64,000 nucleotides of DNA, taken from NCBI RefSeq assembly GCF_035084215.1, contig NC_090356.1, positions 15,810,001 through 15,874,000 on the forward strand, written 5' to 3'. The DNA comes from Heptranchias perlo. Taxonomy: Eukaryota. Below the pieces are notes generated by a model. The model ran no database searches. It saw nothing but the letters and a program-made list of their open reading frames with translations, and was not told the DNA's origin. Of the stretch, positions 7,128 through 61,420 are shown in pieces. Position 1 is the stretch's first letter, and every line of letters begins with the position of its first letter. The position numbers and the translations under genes are program-made.

Positions 7128-7232
7128 TTTACAGTGCTCTGGTCTGGTCAGACCACACCAGTTTTTTTTAATTCTTTTATTCGTTCACGGGATGTGGGCG
7201 TCGCTGGCAAGGCCGGCATTTATTGCCCATCC

Positions 7233-10133
7233 CTAATTGCCCTCGAGAAGGTGGTGGTGAGCCGCCTTCTTGAACCGCTGCAGTCCGTGTGGTGACGGTT
7301 CTCCCACAGTGCTGTTAGGAAGGGAGTTCCAGGATTTTGACCCAGCGACAATGAAGGAACGGCGATATATTTCCAAGTCGGGATGGTGTGTGACTTGGAG
7401 GGGAATGTGCAGGTGGTGTTGTTCCCATGCGCCTGCTGCTCTTGTCCTTCTAGGTGGTAGAGGTCGCGGGTTTGGGAGAAGAAGCCTTGGCGAGTTGCTG
7501 CAGTGCATCCTGTGGATGGTGCACACTGCAGCCACAGTGCGCCGGAGGTGAAGGGAGTGAATGTTTAGGGTGGTGGAAGGGGTGCCAATCAAGCGGGCTG
7601 CTTTATCTTGGATGGTGTCAAGCTTCTTGAGTGTTGTTGGAGCTGCACTCATCCAGGCAAGTGGAGAGTATTCCATCACACTCCTGACTTGTGCCTTGTA
7701 GATGGTGGAAAGGCTTTGGGGAGTCAGGAGGTGAGTCACTCGCCGCAGAATACCCAGCCTCTGACCTGCTCTCGTAGCCACAGTATTTATATGGCTGGTC
7801 CAGTTAAGTTTCTGGTCAATGGTGACCCCCAGGATGTTGATGGTGGGGGATTCGGCGATGGTAATGCCGTTGAATGTCAAGGGGAGGTGGTTAGACTCTC
7901 TCTTGTTGGAGATGGTCATTGCCTGGCACTGATCTGGCGCGAATGTTACTTGCCACTTATGAGCCCAAGCCTGGATGTTGTCCAGGTCTTGCTGCATGCA
8001 GGCTCGGACTGCTTCATTATCTGAGGGGTTGCGAATGGAACTGAACACTGTGCAGTCATCAGCGAACATCCCCATTTCTGACCTTATGATGGAGGGAAGG
8101 TCATTGATGAAGCAGCTGAAGATGGTTGGGCCAAGGACACTGCCCTGAGGAACTCCTGCAGCAATGCCCTGGGGCTGAGATGATTGGCCTCCAACAACCA
8201 CTACCATCTTCCTTTGTGCTAGGTATGAGTCCAGCCACTGGAGAGTTTTCCCCCTGATTCCCATTGACTTCAATTTTACTAGGGCTCCTTGGTGCCACAC
8301 TCGGTCAAATGCTACCTTGATGTCAAGGGCAGTCACTCTCACCTCACCTCTGGAATTCAGCTCTTTTGTCCATGTTTGGACCAAGGCTGTAATGAGGCGT
8401 GGAGCCGAGTGGTCCTGGCGGAACCCAAACTGAGCATCGGTGAGCAGGTTATTGGTGAGTAAGTGCCGCTTGATAGCACTGTCGACGACACCTTCCATCA
8501 CTTTGCTGATGATTGAGAGTAGACTGATGGGGCGGTAATTGGCCGGATTGGATTTGTCCTGCTTTTTGTGGACAGGACATACCTGGGCAATTTTCCACAT
8601 TGTCGGGTGGATGCCAGTGTTGTAGCTGTACTGGAACAGCTTGGCTAGAGGCGCAGCTAGTTCTGGAGCACAAGACTTCAGCACTACAGCTGGGATGTTG
8701 TCGGGGCCCATAGCCTTTGCTGTATCCAGTGCACTCAGCCGTTTCTTGATATCACGTGGAGTGAATCGAATTGGCCGAAGACTGGCTTCTGTGATGGTGG
8801 GGATATCGGGAGGAGGCTGAGATGGATCATCCACTCGGCACTTCTGGCTGAAGATGGTTGCAAACGCTTCAGCCTTGTCTTTTGCACTCATGTGCTGGAC
8901 TCCGCCATCATTGAGAATGGGGATGTTTGCAGAGCCTCCTCCTCCCGTTAGTTGTTTAATTGTCCACCACCATTCACGACTGGATGTGGCAGGACTGCAG
9001 AGCTTTGATCTGATCCGTTGGTTGTGGAATCGCTTAGCTCTGTCTATAGCATGTTGCTTCCGCTGTTTAGCATGCATGTAGTCCTGAGTTGTAGCTTCAC
9101 CGGGTTGGCACCTCATTTTTAGGTACGCCTGGTGCTGCTCCTGGCATGCTCTTCTACACTCCTCATTGAACCAGGGTTGATCCCCTGGCTTGTTGGTAAT
9201 GGTAGAGTGAGGAATATGCCGGGCCATGAGGTTACAGATTGTGCTGGAATACAATTCTGCTGCTGCTGGCCCACAGCGCCTCATGGATGCCCAGTTTTGA
9301 GCTGCTAGATCTGTTCTGAATCTATCCCATTTAGCACGGTGGTAGTGCCACACAACACGTTGGATGGTGTCCTCAGTGCGAAGACGGGATTTCATCTCCA
9401 CGAGGACTGTGCGGTGGTCACTCCTACCAATACTGTCATGGACAGATGCAATTGCGACAGGTAGATTGGTGAGGACGAGGTCAAGTAAGTTTTTCCCTCG
9501 TGTTGGTTCGCTCACCACCTGCCGCAGGCCCAGTCTAGCAGCTATGTCCTTCAGGACTCGGCCAGCTCTGGTGCTACCGAGCCACTCTTGGTGATGGACA
9601 TTGAAGTCCCCCACCCAGAGTACATTTTGTGCCCTTGCTACCCTCAGTGCTTCCTCCAAGTGGTGCTCAACATGGAGGAGGACTGATTCATCAGCTGAGG
9701 GAGGACGGTAGGTGGTAATCAGCAGGAGGTTGCCTTGCCCATGTTTGACCTGATGCCATGAGATTTCATGGGGTCCAGAGTCAATGTTGAGGACTCCTAG
9801 GGCCACTCCCTCCTGACTGTATATCACTGTACCGTCACCTCTGGTGGGTCTGTCCTGCCGGTGGGACAGGACATACCCAGGGATGGTGATGGAAGAGTCT
9901 GGGACGTTGGCTGACAGATATGATTCTGTGAGTATGGCTATGTCAGGCTGTTGCTTGACTAGTCTGTGGGACAGCTCTCCCAATTTTGGCACAAGTCCCC
10001 AGATGTTAGTAAGGAGGACCTTGCAGGGTCGACTGGGCTTGGTGTTTTGCCGTTGTCGTGTCCGGTGCCTAGTGGTCCGATGCCGGGTGGTCTGTCCGGT
10101 TTTATTCTTATTATGACTTTTCGTAGCGAGATT
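7233..10133 (-). CDS. APE endonuclease + reverse transcriptase; frame open from the TAA at 10136-10134, no ATG before the APE domain
   Basis: APE motifs VLLTNIWGL, LTESYL, YRPP, GDFNVHH, LDLVLT, SDH; RT motifs NYRPISLL, QFGFR, DIKVAFDRV, GVPQGSVLGP, FADD. The ORF-track start at 9992 is a GTG; 47 further sense codons lie upstream. Confidence 0.92.
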   Translation of the reverse strand, partial: NLATKSHNKNKTGQTTRHRTTRHRTRQRQNTKPSRPCKVLLTNIWGLVPKLGELSHRLVKQQPDIAILTESYLSANVPDSSITIPGYVLSHRQDRPTRGDGTVIYSQEGVALGVLNIDSGPHEISWHQVKHGQGNLLLITTYRPPSADESVLLHVEHHLEEALRVARAQNVLWVGDFNVHHQEWLGSTRAGRVLKDIAARLGLRQVVSEPTRGKNLLDLVLTNLPVAIASVHDSIGRSDHRTVLVEMKSRLRTEDTIQRVVWHYHRAKWDRFRTDLAAQNWASMRRCGPAAAELYSSTICNLMARHIPHSTITNKPGDQPWFNEECRRACQEQHQAYLKMRCQPGEATTQDYMHAKQRKQHAIDRAKRFHNQRIRSKLCSPATSSREWWWTIKQLTGGGGSANIPILNDGGVQHMSAKDKAEAFATIFSQKCRVDDPSQPPPDIPTITEASLRPIRFTPRDIKKRLSALDTAKAMGPDNIPAVVLKSCAPELAAPLAKLFQYSYNTGIHPTMWKIAQVCPVHKKQDKSNPANYRPISLLSIISKVMEGVVDSAIKRHLLTNNLLTDAQFGFRQDHSAPRLITALVQTWTKELNSRGEVRVTALDIKVAFDRVWHQGALVKLKSMGIRGKTLQWLDSYLAQRKMVVVVGGQSSQPQGIAAGVPQGSVLGPTIFSCFINDLPSIIRSEMGMFADDCTVFSSIRNPSDNEAVRACMQQDLDNIQAWAHKWQVTFAPDQCQAMTISNKRESNHLPLTFNGITIAESPTINILGVTIDQKLNWTSHINTVATRAGQRLGILRRVTHLLTPQSLSTIYKAQVRSVMEYSPLAWMSAAPTTLKKLDTIQDKAARLIGTPSTTLNIHSLHLRRTVAAVCTIHRMHCSNSPRLLLPNPRPLPPRRTRAAGAWEQHHLHIPLQVTHHPDLEIYRRSFIVAGSKSWNSLPNSTVGEPSPHGLQRFKKAAHHHLLEGN

Positions 10134-10344
10134 TTACAACTGATTGGCTTGCTCGGCCATTTCAGAGGGCAATTAAGAATCAACCACATTGCTGTGGGTC
10201 TGGAGTCACATATCGGCCAGACCGGGTTTTTACGACAATCCGGTAGTTTCATGGCCATCATTACTGATACTAGTATTTTAATTCCAGATTTTTATTTATT
10301 TAATTAATTGAATTTTTTAATTAATTAATTGAATTTAAATTCGC

Positions 10345-10440
10345 CAGCTGCCGTGGCGGGATTTGAACTCATGACTTTGGATTTTTAGTCCAGGCCTCTG
10401 GATTACTAGCCCAGTAACATAACCTCTATGCTACCGTACC
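10345..10440 (-). promoter_or_regulatory. tRNA-Thr(AGT)-like internal Pol III promoter: A box 10433-10423, B box 10370-10359
   Basis: Sense reads GGTACGG TAGCATAGAGG (A box) ... CTGGG CTAGTAA TCCAG (anticodon arm, AGT) ... GAGTTCAAATCC (B box). Confidence 0.85.
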
Positions 10441-10671: not shown

Positions 10672-11062
10672 TAAAGAAAGATTTGCATTTATATAGCGCC
10701 TTTCACAACCTCAGGACCTCCCAAAGCGCTTTAGGGCCAATGAAGTACCTTTGAAGTGCAGCCACTGTTGTAATGTAGGAAACGCAGTTGTCAATTTGCG
10801 CACAGCAAGGTCCCACAAACAGCAATGTGATAACGACCAGATAATCTGTTTTTAGTGATGTTGGTTGAGGGATAGATATTGACTAGGACACCGGGGAGAA
10901 CTCCCCTGCTCTTCTTGAAATTGTGCCATGGAATCCTTTATGTCCACTTGAGAGGGAAGACGGGGCCTTGGTTTAATGTCTCATCCGAAAGACGACACCT
11001 CCGACAGTGTAGCACTCCCTCAGTACTGCACTGGAGTGTCTGCCTAGATTTTGTGCTCAAGT
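10672..11062 (-). mobile_element. Deu-SINE, head missing
   Basis: Well-preserved body and tail matching the copies at 23690-24144 and 62080-62500. Confidence 0.8.
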
Positions 11063-11369
11063 ACACAATGCAGCAGTATCTGAATATAAATATGGTAGTG
11101 AAATGATCAGCAATAATTCCGCCCCCCCCTCCACCCCAAACAAAGTGAAAGATGTTAGACATAGAACAATTTTGCATTTTGGGCACCCAGTTTCAGCATC
11201 AGACACGGCCAAGTCAGGTATAACACAGACAGACACAGACTGAGCTCCCTCTACTCTTCCCCAATAATGTGCCTTAGCCCCAACCATGGGGACATAGTAT
11301 CAGATTCAGCTGATGGAGTGTAGGCAACAGGGAACAAGCAATAATTCAGAATCAAAAGGAATGGAAGGT

Positions 11370-24190: not shown

Positions 24191-24706
24191 ATGGAATACT
24201 CTCCACTTGCCTGGGTGAGTGCAGCTCCAACAACACTCAAGAAGCTTGACACCATCCAGGACAAAGCAGCCCGCTTGATTGGCACCGCATCCACCACCCT
24301 AAACTTTCACTCCCTTCACCACTGGCGCACAGTGGCTGCAGTGTGTACCATCCACAGGATGCACTGCAGCAACTCGCCAAGGCTTCTTTGACAGCACCTC
24401 CCCAACCCACGACCTCTACCATCTAGAAGGATAAGGGCAGCAGGCACATGGGAACAACACCACCTGCATGTTCCCCTCCAAGTCACACACCATCCCGACT
24501 TGGAAATATATCGCCGTTCCTTCATCGTCGCTGGGTCAAAATCCTGGAACTCCCTTCCTAACAACACTGTGGGAGAACCTTCACCACACGGACTGCAGCG
24601 GTTCAAGAAGGCGGCTCACCACCACCTTCTCATGGGTAATTAGGGATGGGTAATAAATGCTGGCCTCGCCAGCGACACCCACATCCCATGAACAAATAAA
24701 AAAAAA
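24191..24706 (+). mobile_element. 5'-truncated copy of the 7162-10440 LINE family
   Basis: 'MEYSPLAWVSAAPTTLKKLDTIQDKAARLIG...' nearly identical to the long copy; ends in poly(A). Confidence 0.92.
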
Positions 24707-42931: not shown

Positions 42932-43664
42932 CAGACATTTGTGGGGTGCCAGTCTTGGAGTCCCTGACAGACAGGCACTCGAGGGTGCGGCTGATCTCCA
43001 GCGCCTCCTGCTCTCCGTGTGTGAGGACCACTATTTGTTGTGGCCCCACTCCAGTCCTCGCTCTCTTACGCGCATTTTGGGCTCTCTTCTGGAGGGGGAG
43101 AAAGTGCAGATGTGTGAGTGAGTGAAGGTGAAGTGGCCAACCGATGAATGCATTGCTTTGGGTGAGGCTGACCGTGAAAGGGGTGCATCAGAGGGTGAGT
43201 ATGAGACAGAGACATCACATTGGATGAGGATTGGGGTGAGTGGTAGTGGCGGGGTGACTACTGGGGAGGTGAGGAAGTGCTGAGGGTGTGCAGGTAAGTT
43301 GAGGATGAGCCTTAAGTGGGTGTGAGAAGTGATGTGATGGAGTAGTCTTGGCAGTGCAGAATGATATGGGGGGTGGGGGATGATGTGCACCATGGAATGC
43401 AGGAGAATGAGTGAGTGTACTCACTTTTGCTGACCTACTTAGGTCATTGAAATGCTTCCTGCACTGGACCGAGGTGTGGGAGATGTTGGTACTGCTGGTG
43501 ACCTCCTCTGCCATCTCGAGCCAGGCCTTCTTGGTGGCAGAGGCAGGGCGCTTCCTCCTGTTGGCCGCGTAAAATAGTTCCCTCCCCCTCCTCACCCCGG
43601 CCAGTAGCAGCTGAAGTGAGGCATCACTGAATCGTAGAGCTGCCTTGCCCCTGTGCTGCTCCAT
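42932..43664 (-). pseudogene. Harbinger Myb/SANT-like DNA-binding gene; exons 43664-43425 and 43088-42932
   Basis: MEQHRGKAALRFSDASLQLLL...KKAWLEMAEEV...QCRKHFNDL, GT-AG intron, then KRAQNARKRARTGVGP; remainder deleted. Confidence 0.85.
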
Positions 43665-44904
43665 TGAATCTTCTTGCTCTTTGCTCCAGCAAAATCCATT
43701 GGGGCAATGTCCCTTTAAATCCAGGCGCTGCAGCTGACAGCCTGTCATGCAGGTGCACCGTCCACCCACTGCGAGGCTTTCGGGCGGCAAGCCCGGAAAC
43801 AAGATTAATGGCCACCAATTAAGTCGCGATCACGTGGGGAACGGTAAGTTTATATTGGTTGGTTTGCCGCGCGCTCATTGCCCTCCCCCCACTGGCTGCC
43901 ATTCCGCCGTCCTTTTAAAATCGAGCCCCGTGTCATTATCATGTTCTTAAATCTGGATACATTTGTAAATAGAGTAACAGTAAATGTTCACTTTGGAGGT
44001 CATGTTTGAATAGGAATTTTCCTATGATGGAAAGATTTAATTGGCGTACAGTGAACTGTGTTAGTTACTGAAGTGTGCAGAAGGTACATTACACGATTGC
44101 AGTAGAGTGAAGATGCTGGCTCAAGAGTTTTCTGGTGTTAATAGTTGGCAACCAGTCAGAATGACATGAAGATGAATGCTTTGGTGCATTCCTAATTGGA
44201 AGAGAGAGAATCCCTGTTGTAAAAGGGAGTCAAGTGAAGTTTGGCAGTTCAGACGAGTTCTAATGAAGGCGAAGTGGGCTTTGAGGGCAAGCAAGGAGAA
44301 ATGACTGACATTTTGTTACCACCATTAGTGGAATGGGCTGATATTTAAAGGGAAAGTAAACCTTTTATCCTTCTGCCATGTGTATATTTCAAAGCTATCA
44401 CAAGTTAGATCTATATGACACTATTTTCAACATTTCCATTCATCTCAAATACTTCTCCAGGGTTTCTTAAAAATTTCAGCCTTAATGCCACAATAATTCA
44501 CCTCCATATAGAGATGGTGGGGTTTTTACTGTTACTTCCATTCCCTTGAATTAAAAGTCTGCCCATTGGTTTAAGCTCTTATTAGATGCCAAAAAATAGA
44601 AAAATCCTGGAAATGCAAAAACCAATCAATCTATTCTGTGGGGTAATCTTCTAATAACTAGTCTTGCTTGAGGTTATTTAATTTTGTACTGATATTGTGT
44701 AGTTCTGTAAACACAGCCTAAGTTAAATAGTGTGCTTCTATCTACATTACTCTTAATTTCAGCCTTTGTAGGACCTGGTTCATATCCCTTCTCAATCTTC
44801 ACTTGTATCTCTCTTTGTACTTGCAGCAATGGTGATGTTCTCCAGATAACAAGTTCAGATACTGTTCCCCTGAGCATATGCAGAATCGACATAGCAAGTT
44901 TCAT

Positions 44905-49188: not shown

Positions 49189-50827
49189 TGAGGTTTTTCA
49201 TCAGGTAGGAGGTACTGACTAGGAGCACAGTAATACTTAGCACAAGATCACAACTCTCCCTCTTCATTACATTCCCAGAAGAAAAGTTTGAGAGCACATC
49301 AGGAACAGTCAATGTTCAAACACCAGGCAAGACCACAGGAAAAGTTCACAAATTACACAAAGCAGCCATGTATATTAGTTATGCAAAACATAACCCCAAA
49401 ATTAATCTGAATTAAAACACTGTCTTTGTCTTTGATCCCTATCTTCTGACCAACAATAGACAACAGCAATTTTAGGTATCAGGAATGGTTGCTGGTATAA
49501 CAGAAGGAGAACGATAAGCTATGCTATAGCTAAGTTTCTCTTAATGACAATGATCTCGTATCCCCGTTAACATCTAGTGAATCTATGTTGCACTTTTACC
49601 TATTTTCCTATATTCGTGTGCTCAAAACTGCACAGCACACCAATTATGACTTAACTAAGTCAACTTGTACAAATTCAACATTACCTCCTTGTATTTGTTT
49701 CTATTTTCGAAATACAAAATCAAGGATTCCATGTCCCTTCTAATGGCCATATCTACTTGTACTGCCACCTTTATTGGCCTGAGTATGCACACACAACGAT
49801 CCCTCTGTTCCATTTAAAATCTTAGCATTTAAGGAGCATCTGCCATCTTTCTGCCTATTTATGCCCTGCTGCAGTCTTTCATAATCTTTGTTACAATATG
49901 CCATGCCTTCCCAATTTGATGTCATCGGCAAATGTCGTTATTGTTCCTCGATTACTAAGTACAGGTAATTTAAATATATAGAAAATAAGAGTGGCCTCAA
50001 CACAGATCCGCGTGGAACACCAATCATCACATCTTTAGACCACATCTTCAGTCTAAGAAACTTCCTATTACCTCAACTTTTTTGCTTTCTGTCCTTCAAC
50101 CAACTTTTTCTATCCTTGTGGTCACATTCCCTTCATTCCAAGTGCCATTATCTTTGCTATAAGTCACTCATGTAGTGACTTATCAAATGTTTTTTGAAAA
50201 TCCATATGAACCACATCCACTGCATTTCTTCTATCTCTCCTTTATTACTTATTAAAAGAAGACAATAAGGTTGGCCAAGCATGATCTGTCATTTAGAAAT
50301 CCATGCCTGCTGGCCCAGAGTAATTCAGGAGGTTGATTTTCATCTTCACTGCCTGGGTGGTAACGTGACGCAGCAGATCGCTCGCCCTTTATGGAACCCG
50401 TCCAATTTTCATTCCATTGATTGAAGATGAAAGTTTCCCCCCATGTTTCTCCAAACGCTTACAATTTCATCCAGTTTTATAGATATTTTACTAACAACTG
50501 AAGTAATTCAAACCGGCTGATAATTTCACGGCTTACCTCCGCTTGATTTTTTTGGTGTTCCATTTGCCTCTTCCCAATCATCTGGTGAAATTTTCCTCTC
50601 CAAAGGAATTTGACCCATTATAGTCAGAGCCTCTGCTATTTCTTCCCTAACTTCCCTTAGAATCCTTGCATGCAAACCATAAGGAACCTGTGATTTGTCT
50701 AATATAAATTTCATTAACTTCTTTAGTAACAAGCTAACTGTTCTACATCCAATTGTGGTGATTCTACACTTTCAATATCCACCTTTTCTGTCACAACTGA
50801 GGCAAAGTACTTGCCTCATTCACCTAT

Positions 50828-51237
50828 GGGTCAGGGATGTCTCGGAGCGGCTGCAGGACATTCTGGAGGGGGAGGGTGAACAGCCAGTTGTCGTGGTGCA
50901 TATAGGTACCAACGATATAGGTAAAAAACGGGATGAGGTCCTACAAGCTGAATTTAGGGAGTTAGCAGTTAAACTAAAAAGTAGGACCTCAAAGGTAGTA
51001 ATCTCAGGATTGCTACCAGTGCCACGGGCTAGTCAGAGTAGGAATGACAGGATAGCTAGGATGAATACGTGGCTTGAGAGATGGTGCAAGAGGGAGGGAT
51101 TCAAATTCCTGGGCCATTGGAACTGGTTCTGGGGGAGGTGGGACCAGTACAAATTGGACGGTCTGCATCTGGGCAGGACTGGAACCAATGTCCGAGGGGG
51201 AGTGTTTGCTAGTGCTGTTGGGGAGGGTTTAAACTAA
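50828..51237 (+). pseudogene. CR1 ORF1 C-terminus, SGNH esterase-like domain
   Basis: 'VVVHIGTNDIG' and 'DGLHL' motifs. Confidence 0.85.
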
Positions 51238-51379
51238 TGTGGCAGGGGGATGGGAACCGATGCAGGAAGTCAGTGGGAATTAAAGTGGTGACAGAAACAA
51301 AAGGCAGTAAGGGAGAGTGTACAAAACATGACCGGACAGATGGTCTGAGAAAGCAGGGCAAAGACCAAAGGAAGTCTAG

Positions 51380-54170
51380 ATTAAACTGCATTTATTTCAA
51401 TGCAAGAAGTCTGATGGACAAGGGCACGGATGGGTACATGGGACTGGGATGTTATAGCTATTACTGAAACATGGCTAAGGGAGGGGCAGGACTGGCAGCT
51501 CAATGTTCCAGGGTATGGATGCTATAGGAAAGATAGAGCAGGAGGTAAGAGAGGAGGGGGAGTTGCGTTCTTGATTAGGGAGAACATCACGGCAGTAGTG
51601 AGAGGGGATATATCCGAGGGTTCGCCCACTGAGTCTATATGGGTAGAACTGAAAAATAAGAAGGGAGAGATCACTTTGATAGGATTGTACTACAGACCCC
51701 CAAATAGTCAACGGGAAATTGAGGAGCAAATATGTAAAGAGATTACAGACAGCTGCAAGAAAAATAGGGTGGTAATAGTAGGGGACTTTAACTTTCCCAA
51801 CATTGACTGGGACAGCCATAGCATTAGGGGCTTGGATGGAGAGAAATTTGTTGAGTGTATTCAGGAGGAATTTCTCATTCAGTATGTGGATGGCCCGACT
51901 AGAGAGGGGGCAAAACTTGACCTCCTCTTGGGAAATAAGGAAGGGCAGGTGACAGAAGTGTTAGTGAGGGACCACTTTGGGACCAGTGATCATAATTCCA
52001 TTAGTTTTAAGATAGCTATGGAGAATGATAGGTCTGGCCCAAAAGTTAAAATTCTAAATTGGGGAAAGGCCAATTTTGACGGTATTAGACAGGAACTTTC
52101 AGTAGTTGATTGGGAGAGTCTGTTGGCAGGCAAAGGGACGTCCAGTAAGTGGGAGGCTTTCAAAAGTGTGTTAACCAGGGTTCAGGGTAAGCACATTCCT
52201 TATAAAGTGAAGGGCAAGGCTGGTAGAAGTAGGGAACCTTGGATGACTCGGGAGATTGAGGCCCTAGTCAGAAAGAAGAAGGAGGCATATGACATGCATA
52301 GACAGCTGGGATCAAGTGGATCCCTTGAAGAGTATAGAGATTGCCGGAGTAGAGTTAAGAGAGAAATCAGGAGGGCAAAAAGGGGACATGAGATTGCTTT
52401 TGCAGATAAGGCAAAGGAGAATCCAAAGAGCTTCTACAAATACATAAAGGGCAAAAGAGTAACTAGGGAGAGAGTAGGGCCTCTTAAGGATCAACAAGGT
52501 CATCTATGTGCGGAACCACAAGAGATGGGTGAGATCCTGAATGAATATTTCACATCGGTATTTACGGTTGGGAAAGGCATGGATGTTAGGGAACTTGGGG
52601 AAATAAATAGTGATGTCTTGAGGAGTGTACATATTACAGAGAGGGAGGTGCTGGAAGTCTTAACGCGCATCAAGGTAGATAAATCTCCGGGACCTGATGA
52701 AATGTATCCCAGGACGTTATGGGAGGTTAGGGAGGAAATTGCGGGTCCCCTAGCAGAGATATTTAAATCATCGACAGCTACAGGTGAGGTGCCTGAAGAT
52801 TGGAGGGTAGCAAATGTTGTGCCTTTGTTTAAGAAGGGCGGCAGGGAAAAGCCTGGGAACTACAGACCGGTGAGCCTGACATCTGTAGTGGGTAAGTTGT
52901 TCGAGGGTATTCTGAGAGACAGGATCTACAGGCATTTGGAGAGGCAGGGACTGATTAGCAACAGTCAGCATGGTTTTGTGAGAGGAAAATCATGTCTCAC
53001 GAATTTGATTGAGTTTTTTGAAGGGGTAACCAAGAAGATAGATGAGGGCTGTGCAGTAGACGTGGTCTACATGGACTTTAGCAAAGCCTTTGACAAGGTA
53101 CCGCATGGTAGGTTGTTACATAAGGTTAAATCTCACGGGATCCAAGGTGAGGTAGCCAATTGGATACAAAATTGGATTGACGACAGAAGACAGAGGGTGG
53201 TTGTAGAGGGTTGTTTTTCAAACTGGAGGCCTGTGACCAGCGGTGTGCCTCAGGGATCGGTGCTGGGTCCGCTGTATTTACTATTTATATTAATGATTTG
53301 GATGAGAATTTAGGAGGCATGGTTAGTAAGTTTGCAGATGACACCAAGATTGGTGGCATTGTGGACAGTGAAGAAGGTTATCTAGGATTGCAACGGGATC
53401 TTGATAAATTGGGCCAGTGGGCCGATGAATGGCAGATGGAGTTTAATTTAGATAAATGTGAGGTGATGCATTTTGGTAGATCGAATCGGGCCAGGACCTA
53501 CTCTGTTAATGGTAGGGCGTTGGGGAGAGTTATAGAACAAAGAGATCTGGGAGTACAGGTTCATAGCTCCTTGAAAGTGGAGTCACAGGTGGATAGGATG
53601 GTGAAGAAGGCATTCGGCATGCTTGGTTTCATTGGTCAGAACATTGAATACAGGAGTTGGGATGTCTTGTTGAAGTTGTACAAGACATTAGTTAGGCCAC
53701 ACTTGGAATACTGTGTACAGTTCTGGTCACCCTATTATCGAAAGGATATTATTAAACTAGAAAGAGTGCAGAAAAGATTTACAAGGATGCTACCGGGACT
53801 TGATGGTTTGACTTATAGGGAGAGGTTGGATAGACTAAGACTTTTTTCCCTGGAGAGTAGGAGGTTTAGGGGTGATCTTATAGAAGTCTATAAAATAATG
53901 AGGGGCATAGATAAGGTAGATAGTCAAAATCTTTTCCCAAAGGTAGGGGAGTCTATAACGAGGGGGCATAGATTTAAGGTGAGAGGGGAGAGATACAAAA
54001 GGGTCCAGAGGGGCAATTTTTTCACTCAAAGGGTGGTGAGTGTCTGGAACGAGCTGCCAGAGGCAGTAGTAGAGGCGGGTACAATTTTGTCTTTTAAAAA
54101 GCATTTGGACAGTTACATGGGTAAGATGGGTATAGAGGGATATGGGCCAAGTGCAGGCAATTGGGACTAG
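51380..54170 (+). pseudogene. CR1 ORF2 (APE + RT), frameshifted near 51420 and near 53277
   Basis: YFNARS, ITETWL, YYRPP, GDFN, SDHN, NYRPVSL, DFSKAFDKV, GVPQGSVLGP, KFADDTK; split across track ORFs 51430-53313 and 53211-54170. Confidence 0.93.
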
Positions 54171-54290: not shown

Positions 54291-54715
54291 TTTTTTATGT
54301 TCATTCTTGGAAAGGCCAGTATTTATTGCCCATCTCTAGTTGTCCTTGAGAAGGTGATGGTGGGCCGCCTTCTTGAACCACTGCATTGGAGCTTGCTAGC
54401 CCACTTCAGAGGGCAGTTAAGATTCAACCATGTTGGTATGGAACCAGAGTCACATGAAGGCAAGACCGGGTAAGGAGCTTTCCCTCCCTAATAGAAAAAA
54501 CATAGAAAACATAGAAAATGGACATTAGTGAGTCAGTTGGGTTTTTACGACAACCCGACAGCTTCATGGTCACTTTTACTGGTACCAGCTTTATGTTTCC
54601 AAATTTTTCTATAAATTGAACAGAAATTCTCAAACTCCCATGGTGGGATTTGAACTCATTCTCTGGATTATTAGTCCAGGCCTCTGGATTACAAATCCAT
54701 TAATATAACTACTTA
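54291..54715 (-). mobile_element. tRNA-Thr-like SINE made of the 5' leader and 3' tail of the 7162-10440 LINE family
   Basis: 54715-54391 aligns to about 10435-10149; 54385-54291 aligns to about 7282-7175; no ORF between. Confidence 0.88.
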
Positions 54716-59589: not shown

Positions 59590-61420
59590 AAAACTCATCA
59601 TGAGATGGCTGCCGGGAGCCATGGCCCACCTCTCTTTTTCCACTGATACTAAGAGAGCCTGTGAGGGATGAGGGCATCCCTGGCATCCAGGGCAGCAATG
59701 TGCTCGGCTGGTTTGGCAATGGGTGCACCATCATCATATTCCTCCTCCTCATCCTCCTCCTCATCCTCTTCCTCTTGTTCAATGTTATCACCAACAGAGG
59801 ATGATTAACGAGCGCCTTCGTCCTCCTCTATCTGTAAACCTCACTGCTGCGCTATGTTGTGCAGAACGCAGCGCACCCCGATTATTCTGGAGATCCTCGC
59901 TGGTGAGTACTGAAGGGCACCTTCAGGCCTATCCAGGCACCTGAAGCGTATCTTCAACATGCCTGTGGCTTGTTCAGTGACACACCTGGTGATCATGTGG
60001 CTCTGGTTGTATCGCTCTCATGCCTCGTTGGTGGGGTTCCTCATAGGTGTCATGAGCCAAGTTTGCAGCGGATATCCCTTGTCTCCAACAAACCAGCCCT
60101 TAAGTCTGTCTCTTGTTTGGAGGAGGTCTGGAATGTTGGACTGGTGCAGAATGAACGCATCGTGCCAGCTGCCAGGAAATCTGGCGCACACCTGCATAAA
60201 TCGCTTCTTGTGGTTGCACACCAACTGTGCCTTGGCGGAGTGATAGCCCTTTTGGTTTTTGAAGATTCCTGGCCCATGTGTTGGTCCTCGTATTGCCACA
60301 TGTGTGCAGTCGATTGCATCCTGCACCCGTGGGAAGCCAGGCAGAGAAGCAAAACCCACTGCCCACTCATCATGGCTGTTGTCGTTGTGGGGAAAGTTCA
60401 TGTAATGGGACGCTCCGGCAAACAACCCATCCGTCACCTGCCTTATACCCTTATGATTGACTTCCCCTTGGAAATCTCACCAGTGACACCCTGGAAGGAT
60501 CCGGAGGCAAAGAAATCGAGGGCAGTGATTACTTTTACTGCGACGGGCAATGCGTGGCCACCAGGTCAAGTCGGGAGCAGCTCTTCCTCAAGGAGGCTGT
60601 AGATATCTGCGACCACCTGCCGACTCAATCTGAGCCGGCGTAGACACTGCTCCTCAGAGAGGTCCAGGAAGCTCAGCCTCTGCCTGTCTACCCTCTCATG
60701 TGGGTAGTGCCTCCTGTGACTTTAGCCCCTCTGTTGCTCCTCTCTCTGCTGTTCTCCAGGTTCTTGTTGTGCACCTCTCTTTCTTGTGCACGGCAGATCC
60801 CAATACAGCACGGCATGGCTGCTGCAGATGGTCATTTTCCTCCTCCTCCTCAGATGTCCTCTGGAATACATCCATTGCGTTCCCCATCCTGACCATGTCA
60901 GTTTGAGAGGCTCCAAAGTTTTGCTAAAGATGTCTCAACACAAGAACTGTCAGTCTCAGCAAAGAACACACAGTCTCAATGCAAGAACGCTCAGCCAAAC
61001 ATTTGCCTGAGAGAACTGAGAGACCAGCTGCAAAACCTCACCTTTAATTGAGATGGGTCAATCACAGGTTCAAAGGCCCAAATCTGGCTGAATTGGCTGA
61101 ATCTCACCTCTGTTTCACTGGCGAGATTCAGAAGCCCCAGAAAACCCATGCAGGAGACGTTAAATTTGTTTCTGTTTAAGAATCAATTAAAAAATACCTG
61201 CCTCAACTACCTCAGCGATCTTAATTGACGCACTAAGTACCTGCCCGCTGGCAATAATTGGGGACGCGACTTCCGGGTTTCGGCTGCACGCACGCATTCA
61301 AATCTGCCCACGTTAAACCCGGAAGTGGGCACGTCGGTGCCGGGTTACGGTCTCGCTACAAAATCAAGGATTTTCACTACCCACCTGCCCCCAAACTGTT
61401 TTGGAGGGTTAAAATTCCCC
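59590..61420 (-). mobile_element. Harbinger transposon, one-ended (TIR at 61420)
   Basis: End 'ggggaattttaaccc', subterminal 'cttccgggttt' motifs, whole transposase region; Myb half absent. Confidence 0.85.
59649..60887 (-). pseudogene. HARBI1-like transposase, full span but disrupted
   Basis: MGNAMDVF...; 'GFPRVQDAIDCTHVAI', 'VCARFPGSWHDAFIL', 'GWFVGDKGYPLQTWLMTP'; acidic tail ending ARDALIPHRLS*. Confidence 0.9.

Follow-up and report, generated by a model that had tools for sequence, protein, structure and literature searches.

Background

Zenon elements of elasmobranchs were described by Stuart et al. 2026 (PMC13343379) as poly(A)-tailed long interspersed elements (LINEs) without a first open reading frame (ORF1), found in five species with >84% identity, and in the accessible text of that paper the poly(A) 3′ end is said to be unique to Zenon among CR1-group elements. 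Short interspersed elements (SINEs) of the tRNA-derived SINE2 type, such as the bipartite Bov-tA and SINE2-1_ACar, consist of a tRNA head with A and B boxes, a body and a LINE-type 3′ tail (accessible parts of PMC4494074 and PMC5786205); they are short and non-coding, the head was added onto an already deleted LINE, and SINEs are stated to be incapable of encoding protein (Kojima 2018, PMC5786205). RTE-1_DAn and elements related to it, which belong to the RTE clade, are LINEs containing tRNA-like sequence that matches many SINE2 heads, and are the nearest printed precedent found (same source). The present analysis concerns an element on the minus strand at 7162..10440 of a 64,000-nucleotide stretch of the Heptranchias perlo genome (NCBI RefSeq GCF_035084215.1, contig NC_090356.1, positions 15,810,001 to 15,874,000; the whole stretch is referred to as the window). 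It is a full-length, single-ORF LINE of the elasmobranch Zenon type, ~1% off the family column majority, in which a tRNA-like head sits on a full coding LINE.

Structure of the element

All coordinates of the element are on the minus strand. [quoted passage not shown] The SINE-like body, or leader, follows at 10137..10351 and includes an AT-rich palindromic repeat (10278-10341); ~300 nt of leader lie between the head and the main frame, and the window copy has a private 49-nt leader deletion near 10227. A tiny upstream frame from AUG to TAA (10134..10160) is in phase with the stop-free frame of 966 codons (7233..10133), which lacks a 5′ AUG and encodes a basic N-terminal stretch, an AP-endonuclease (APE) domain (PF03372/PF14529, 9405..10007, Pfam, aa 43-243), a reverse transcriptase (RT) domain (RVT_1, PF00078, 7818..8564, Pfam, aa 524-772, FADD at 8066-8055) and a C-terminal domain. 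A short 3′ untranslated region (UTR) with an A-rich tail (7162..7232) closes the element and, like the body, is common to the short derivatives described below. The parts named in an earlier sequence-only reading (tRNA-like 5′ end, A box, AGT arm, B box, leader, APE and RT frame) were all located, as were its two absences: there is no ORF1, and no A-tail separates the head from the ORF. A scan for target-site duplications gave none that was convincing at the window copy or in most of 23 full copies.

Comparison with published Zenon elements

The first 400 nt of the published entries of PMC13343379 were compared with the element by eye. All 7 elasmobranch consensuses from the 5 species (SquAca_Zenon-1/2/3, CarCar_Zenon-1, RhiTyp_Zenon-1, ScyCan_Zenon-1 and HypSab_Zenon-1) open with the same head, body and linker. 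The A and B boxes are kept, the stretch between them varies, and the ray B box is one letter short. These entries are ~3.3 kb long with a single APE-RT ORF, no ORF1 and poly(A), as is the window element, and no structural difference from it was found in them; the Squalus entries are the closest to it over the compared stretch. The 2 hagfish and 1 coelacanth Zenon consensuses have no such head and are rich in T-runs. The features reported for Zenon are present in the element itself, namely a single APE and RT ORF without ORF1, and A-rich ends in the 23 full copies. In a FastTree phylogeny of 129 unlabelled RT sequences it fell into a group of 27 rows (support 99) that is separate from the canonical CR1 of the window, to which its RT is 25-28% identical.

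The tRNA head was joined before the shark-ray split (~250-300 My ago), because all published shark and ray consensuses carry it. Loose ends pile up at the first base of the head in two other organisms, to which SINE copies could contribute.

The sequence-only reading knew of no description of this architecture, and this stands in part. The element corresponds to the elasmobranch Zenon of PMC13343379; its tRNA head passes unremarked in the main text of that paper, which holds no mention of tRNA, polymerase, promoter or Pol III, and the preprint likewise holds none of tRNA, promoter or polymerase. The head, the lacking AUG and the loss of U-runs are not discussed in the published main text. No description of a Pol III-driven coding LINE was found in the searchable full-text literature, most subscription papers and Repbase/Dfam being outside its reach.

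Copy number and 5′ end of the family

The 3.25-Gb genome was searched with exact 20-mers, with reversed patterns as controls. The 20-mer of the head was matched 6,640 times, that of the body-ORF junction 5,882 times and that of the APE start 3,264 times, and each of the three reversed patterns 0 times; the recurrence of the junction is therefore beyond chance. Confinement of the junction to this locus had been named beforehand as grounds for rejecting the architecture, as had full-length copies with an ORF1 or another 5′ UTR; the former is contradicted by these counts, and none of the latter was found in the sample described next.

The first two locus sets were the best-scoring matches, 30 by junction and 30 by whole element. 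The junction loci start within a few bases of one point, and their flanks are unrelated except for one duplicate pair; 23 of the 30 whole-element loci align from head to tail and represent 19 independent insertions. The 5′ start region of the head was the same in 30/30 loci, with a consensus A box in 26/30 and a consensus B box in 30/30. Sampling by position covered the first 32.8 Mb of contig C1, where the APE start was matched 47 times; upstream of 42 of these matches, at the distance expected, stood the head or junction motif in exact form. The remaining 5 comprised 2 full heads with mismatches, 1 copy truncated in the leader and 2 truncated in the linker, the 3 truncated copies having unrelated flanks. 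An ORF1 or alternative 5′ UTR was seen in 0/47. In the converse test an exact LINE motif lay downstream of 56/100 heads; when 10 of the other 44 were fetched, 6 proved to be older LINE copies, 1 was of the short SINE type and 3 had no downstream match. The head is the fixed 5′ end of the family, which is of high copy number.

Chimeras of SINEs and LINEs that arise by template switching are common (accessible parts of PMC4824008 and PMC7245038), and the position-based sample holds only 47 copies; the headed form could on these grounds have arisen as a one-off chimera or from an insertion alongside, or be carried as a passenger by a parent LINE that has an ORF1 and a 5′ UTR of its own. The one-off form is already refuted by the 5,882 exact junctions. 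The absence of an alternative 5′ end in all 47 sampled copies, the same junction in the published entries of five other species and the description of Zenons without ORF1 (PMC13343379) leave the remaining forms exceedingly improbable as well.

Apparent alternative 5′ ends at query ~437 and ~740 were search-window artefacts, the majority of which reached the head once realigned. Five copies (L046-L050, G000:C1381) have common flanks, and each is enclosed by inverted fragments (87%) belonging to an older subfamily; they are segmental duplicates and were counted as a single insertion. In one copy (L039, G000:C29:41.42 Mb) 107 nt of the copy's ORF sit inverted between the leader and the APE start.

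Selection on the reading frame and protein relatives

Non-CpG changes shared by at least 2 of 19 head-bearing copies numbered 35 synonymous to 31 nonsynonymous, compared with 131 to 281 for changes private to one of the same copies (Fisher p=0.0012; neutral expectation ~28% synonymous). The ORF is under purifying selection. Among the 40 differences listed, with 221 more in the full set, 38 were coding, and those fixed in other organisms were 9 synonymous and 4 conservative. A frame of at least 954 codons is kept in 5/23 full copies. As the fusion is old, being present in sharks and a ray, and the ORF of head-bearing copies is under selection, the family is autonomous, in agreement with the sequence-only reading; that the tRNA-headed LINE is a real, ancient and autonomous architecture is close to certain. 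The window copy is stop-free, yet it may be dead, given its 49-nt leader deletion, two in-frame deletions of 9 nt and 14 private amino-acid changes.

Protein relatives are APE-RT proteins of similar length, 37-38% identical, and the ESM Atlas returned generic APE-RT clusters only. Shark gene models P0016, P0046, P0054 and P0055, among whose names are Heptranchias, Heterodontus and Pristiophorus, contain 78-82% identical pieces of the LINE protein and are probably annotation chimeras.

Transcription of the element

In its A and B boxes the head is that of a SINE2, with a covariance score under the Rfam gathering score. The element is unlike a SINE2, which is short, non-coding and non-autonomous, in its 3.3-kb length and in its ORF under purifying selection. 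No tRNA was called in the head by ARAGORN, and Rfam RF00005 scored 16 bits (E 4.5) on the window head and 19.3 bits (E 0.052) on the head of another copy, the gathering score being 29; the miss and the low scores are probably caused by the duplicated anticodon-like arm. ARAGORN on 10 loci of related metagenome LINEs and a B-box scan upstream of clade members among them found no tRNA-like head; this absence is weak, since the shark head too escapes ARAGORN and the contigs are in many cases 5′-incomplete. MetaSINEs are marked by a 66-bp Meta domain directly behind the head. The body had no clear match, by eye, among the bivalve MetaSINEs in the part of the PMC4824008 supplement that was compared.

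The sense strand is poor in T-runs. TTTT is absent from it in 20/23 full copies, as against 12 runs in 2.76 kb (4.4 per kb) of the window's CR1 and a background of ~6 per kb. From 80 relative loci 2 were dropped as too short, and only 1 of the 78 related ORFs left (at least 400 aa), a 466-aa partial, is without TTTT. The TTT count was 5 where codon-preserving shuffles gave 14.9 (0/2000 as low), and TTT was the most depleted non-CpG trimer; 0/29 TTx codons were preceded by T (p=0.0013), and the codon-junction ratio for T followed by T was 0.42-0.45, compared with 0.91±0.13 in the 78 relatives. A whole-element dinucleotide shuffle showed C-run depletion too and is for that reason a poor null for coding DNA; codon-aware nulls were relied on instead.

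Base changes were tallied over the 51 copies of the L002-L060 alignment. Sense-strand T in TpA differs in 4.7% of cases, as against 0.55-1.2% for other T. In the palindromic CTAG, T differs in 68/447 cells and A in 6/448, in copies lying on both genome strands; CpG decay, unlike that of CTAG, is symmetric between strands. The substitutions, T>G and T>C, turn up repeatedly in different subfamilies, some of them nonsynonymous, with an example near window 10154. The strand asymmetry suggests an event of the RNA phase, in which the RT miscopies a modified or nicked CUAG uridine, and CUAG hypermutation may be a mark of how the RNA is handled.

Several of these observations weigh against transcription by Pol III. 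The Rfam score of the window head is below threshold; one of the 78 relatives is equally low in its codon-junction ratio (0.44); with so little T in the sequence, the lack of TTTT is not significant by itself (P 0.06-0.09); and the TTT deficit falls to P 0.09-0.13 when codon-junction dinucleotides are held fixed, so that the T-run signal equals a general UpU depletion. The real signal is a ~2-fold UpU deficit. UpA shows depletion as well, along with sense-strand hypermutation, and this is another route to the loss of U; CTAG hypermutation weakens the argument from terminator loss. One weak terminator, TCTTT, is present in 17/23 full copies; in the accessible part of PMC8466645 this motif is a 50% terminator in B2 assays. 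The tRNA-like start is preceded by G in 16/23 loci scored, and this G could belong to the element itself or have been copied from a cap. None of the sequencing runs listed as holding the element is recorded as RNA; contigs from four runs span all 30 bins, three of these runs being RNA by guess only, so that nothing about expression, strand or start follows from them.

Most of these points would be accommodated if the SINE head served as a 5′ UTR and the working RNA were a capped Pol II transcript, begun in the head or by host read-through, with U-poverty the outcome of RNA-phase mutation or of selection against UpU/UpA-cutting nucleases. UpU depletion would then account for the TTT deficit, the depletion and hypermutation of UpA would go with it, TCTTT is tolerated in 17/23 copies and a 5′ G occurs in 16/23 loci; the good-context upstream AUG described below fits cap-dependent scanning, and LINEs are generally held to be Pol II transcripts (PMC5786205, accessible text). 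Against this stand the conservation of the A and B boxes and of the +1 start over five species while the adjoining head sequence varies, and a loss of U-runs that is peculiar to the element's family when set against the 78 relatives and the CR1 of the same genome. The single TCTTT, moreover, is abolished by two mutually exclusive synonymous alleles in 23/51 copies. Use of a capped Pol II transcript is on these grounds considered unlikely, though it deserves to be taken seriously.

Transcription of the element by Pol III as template RNA is held to be fairly probable, on sequence signals that are mixed. The favoured reading, to which moderate confidence is given, is that of an ORF1-less autonomous Zenon (CR1-group) LINE in which a SINE-type head derived from a tRNA has taken the place of the earlier 5′ end. 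The exchange predates the shark-ray split and probably came about by template switching. TFIIIC would bind the A and B boxes, Pol III would read 3.3 kb through to a flanking T-run, and the element's own APE-RT would use this RNA as its template in target-primed reverse transcription, the promoter thus travelling inside every full copy.

Translation of the frame

The 966-codon frame had been called intact. It is stop-free, but besides the deletions noted above it has no opening AUG, a gap that the sequence-only reading overlooked. Ahead of APE domain I, an AUG follows the last stop in 0/57 copies, and the earliest in-frame Met of the window copy is at about residue 247; in the clade relatives L062, L064, L065, L068 and L069 an AUG is present within 20 codons. 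An upstream AUG at 10160-10158 has a good context (purine at -3, G at +4) and lies in phase, 48 codons upstream. Its frame is cut short at codon 3, codon 9 or both, with TAG at codon 3 in many copies and TAA at 10136-10134 in the window copy. Stop read-through is unlikely where two stops occur, as they do in 26/57 copies. No significant IRES-like fold was found in the leader or linker (z -1.75, +0.35), a point that, with the missing AUG, counts against the favoured reading.

By eye, the in-phase upstream AUG is found in all five published species too; in white shark, catshark and stingray it is in frame with the ORF but a TAG at codon 3 blocks it, and in the whale shark and SquAca-1 consensuses the register is off by one base.

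Termination-reinitiation without AUG is weakly favoured and is the weakest step of the explanation. L1 ORF2 is reinitiated independently of AUG and offers an analogy, as an element with no Pol III head. R2 offers another; a ribozyme releases its RNA from a co-transcript with rRNA (accessible text of PMC5786205), and it too has no Pol III head. For the shark element the Pol III RNA would itself be translated without a normal start, most likely by reinitiation after the tiny in-phase frame, and RT output would thereby be kept low. That one Pol III transcript doubles as mRNA in this way is a tentative proposal, somewhat on the doubtful side.

The two tasks could instead be divided, with Pol III supplying the template RNA and the protein coming from capped Pol II transcripts or from a minority of copies with an open AUG. 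Neither the codon-3 nor the codon-9 stop is present in 497/7,737 genome matches, thousands of copies genome-wide are open to host read-through, and uncapped RNA is poorly translated. The ORF is, however, under purifying selection in lineages that bear both head and stop, and each lineage therefore relies on its own protein; the stop is also present in the youngest and most abundant copies. Such a division of labour is judged quite improbable.

Short derivatives and significance

An old SINE-like relative lies at 54295..54715 (minus strand) of the window, where the same head and body are joined to the last ~110 nt of the LINE (77-87% identity). In this copy and in the fetched ones head and body are as in the LINE and are followed by a linker stub, after which the sequence continues with the final ~110 nt. 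Few young short forms occur in the genome (10 exact matches, with 8 different joints), and those of other organisms have different, deeper joints. Across the short relatives the head and body are joined to 3′ end pieces of varying length; both ends are common with the partner LINE and the break points vary, as in internally deleted elements of the SIDE type. The short relatives look like internal deletions of the LINE. In the Zenon/Persaeus LINE-SIDE pair of Lepidoptera (accessible part of PMC6740152) a single-ORF 3.3-kb CR1-group LINE likewise repeatedly yields internally deleted derivatives; Persaeus is stated there to be without tRNA homology or a Pol III promoter, whereas the shark derivatives inherit a tRNA-type promoter.

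The short shark forms thus seem to be derived from a headed LINE, the reverse of the SINE2 order. Internal deletion of such a LINE would give a complete SINE, with head, body and RT-binding tail, in one step. New SINEs could thereby arise in an order that is the opposite of the published model, in which a head is added onto a deleted LINE. The full proposal, in which the family has depended on Pol III since before the shark-ray split, an uncapped and terminator-purged 3.3-kb RNA serves both as AUG-less mRNA and as template, tRNA-SINEs are born repeatedly by deletion and a mark on the CUAG uridine is miscopied by the RT, is speculative and is put forward as possible rather than probable.

A tRNA-headed autonomous LINE fixed across elasmobranchs blurs the divide between LINEs and SINEs, which is drawn by promoter class and coding. 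If Pol III does read the element, it would be a natural 3.3-kb Pol III mRNA, and the elongation length of Pol III, the translation of uncapped RNA and a possible benefit of a Pol III promoter to a LINE in evading Pol II-directed silencing would become directly testable. Should Pol II be the polymerase after all, the accessible literature would still hold no report of the old fusion, the lack of a start codon or the strand-specific hypermutation of CUAG.

Other repeats in the window

A 5′-truncated 3′ fragment of the same LINE family (92%) lies at 24191..24704 on the plus strand. The near-complete canonical CR1 that served as T-run control is at 50683-54170 (plus strand); its ORF1 is represented by a GDSL-esterase fragment, and its ORF2 is frameshifted. 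Decayed Harbinger-like pieces with DDE_Tnp_4 and Myb/SANT-like domains are found at 60018-60476 and 43215-43829, both on the minus strand. A separate SINE-like repeat, which may resemble shark DeuSINE/SacSINE1, lies 240 nt upstream of the head at 10680-11080 (minus strand).

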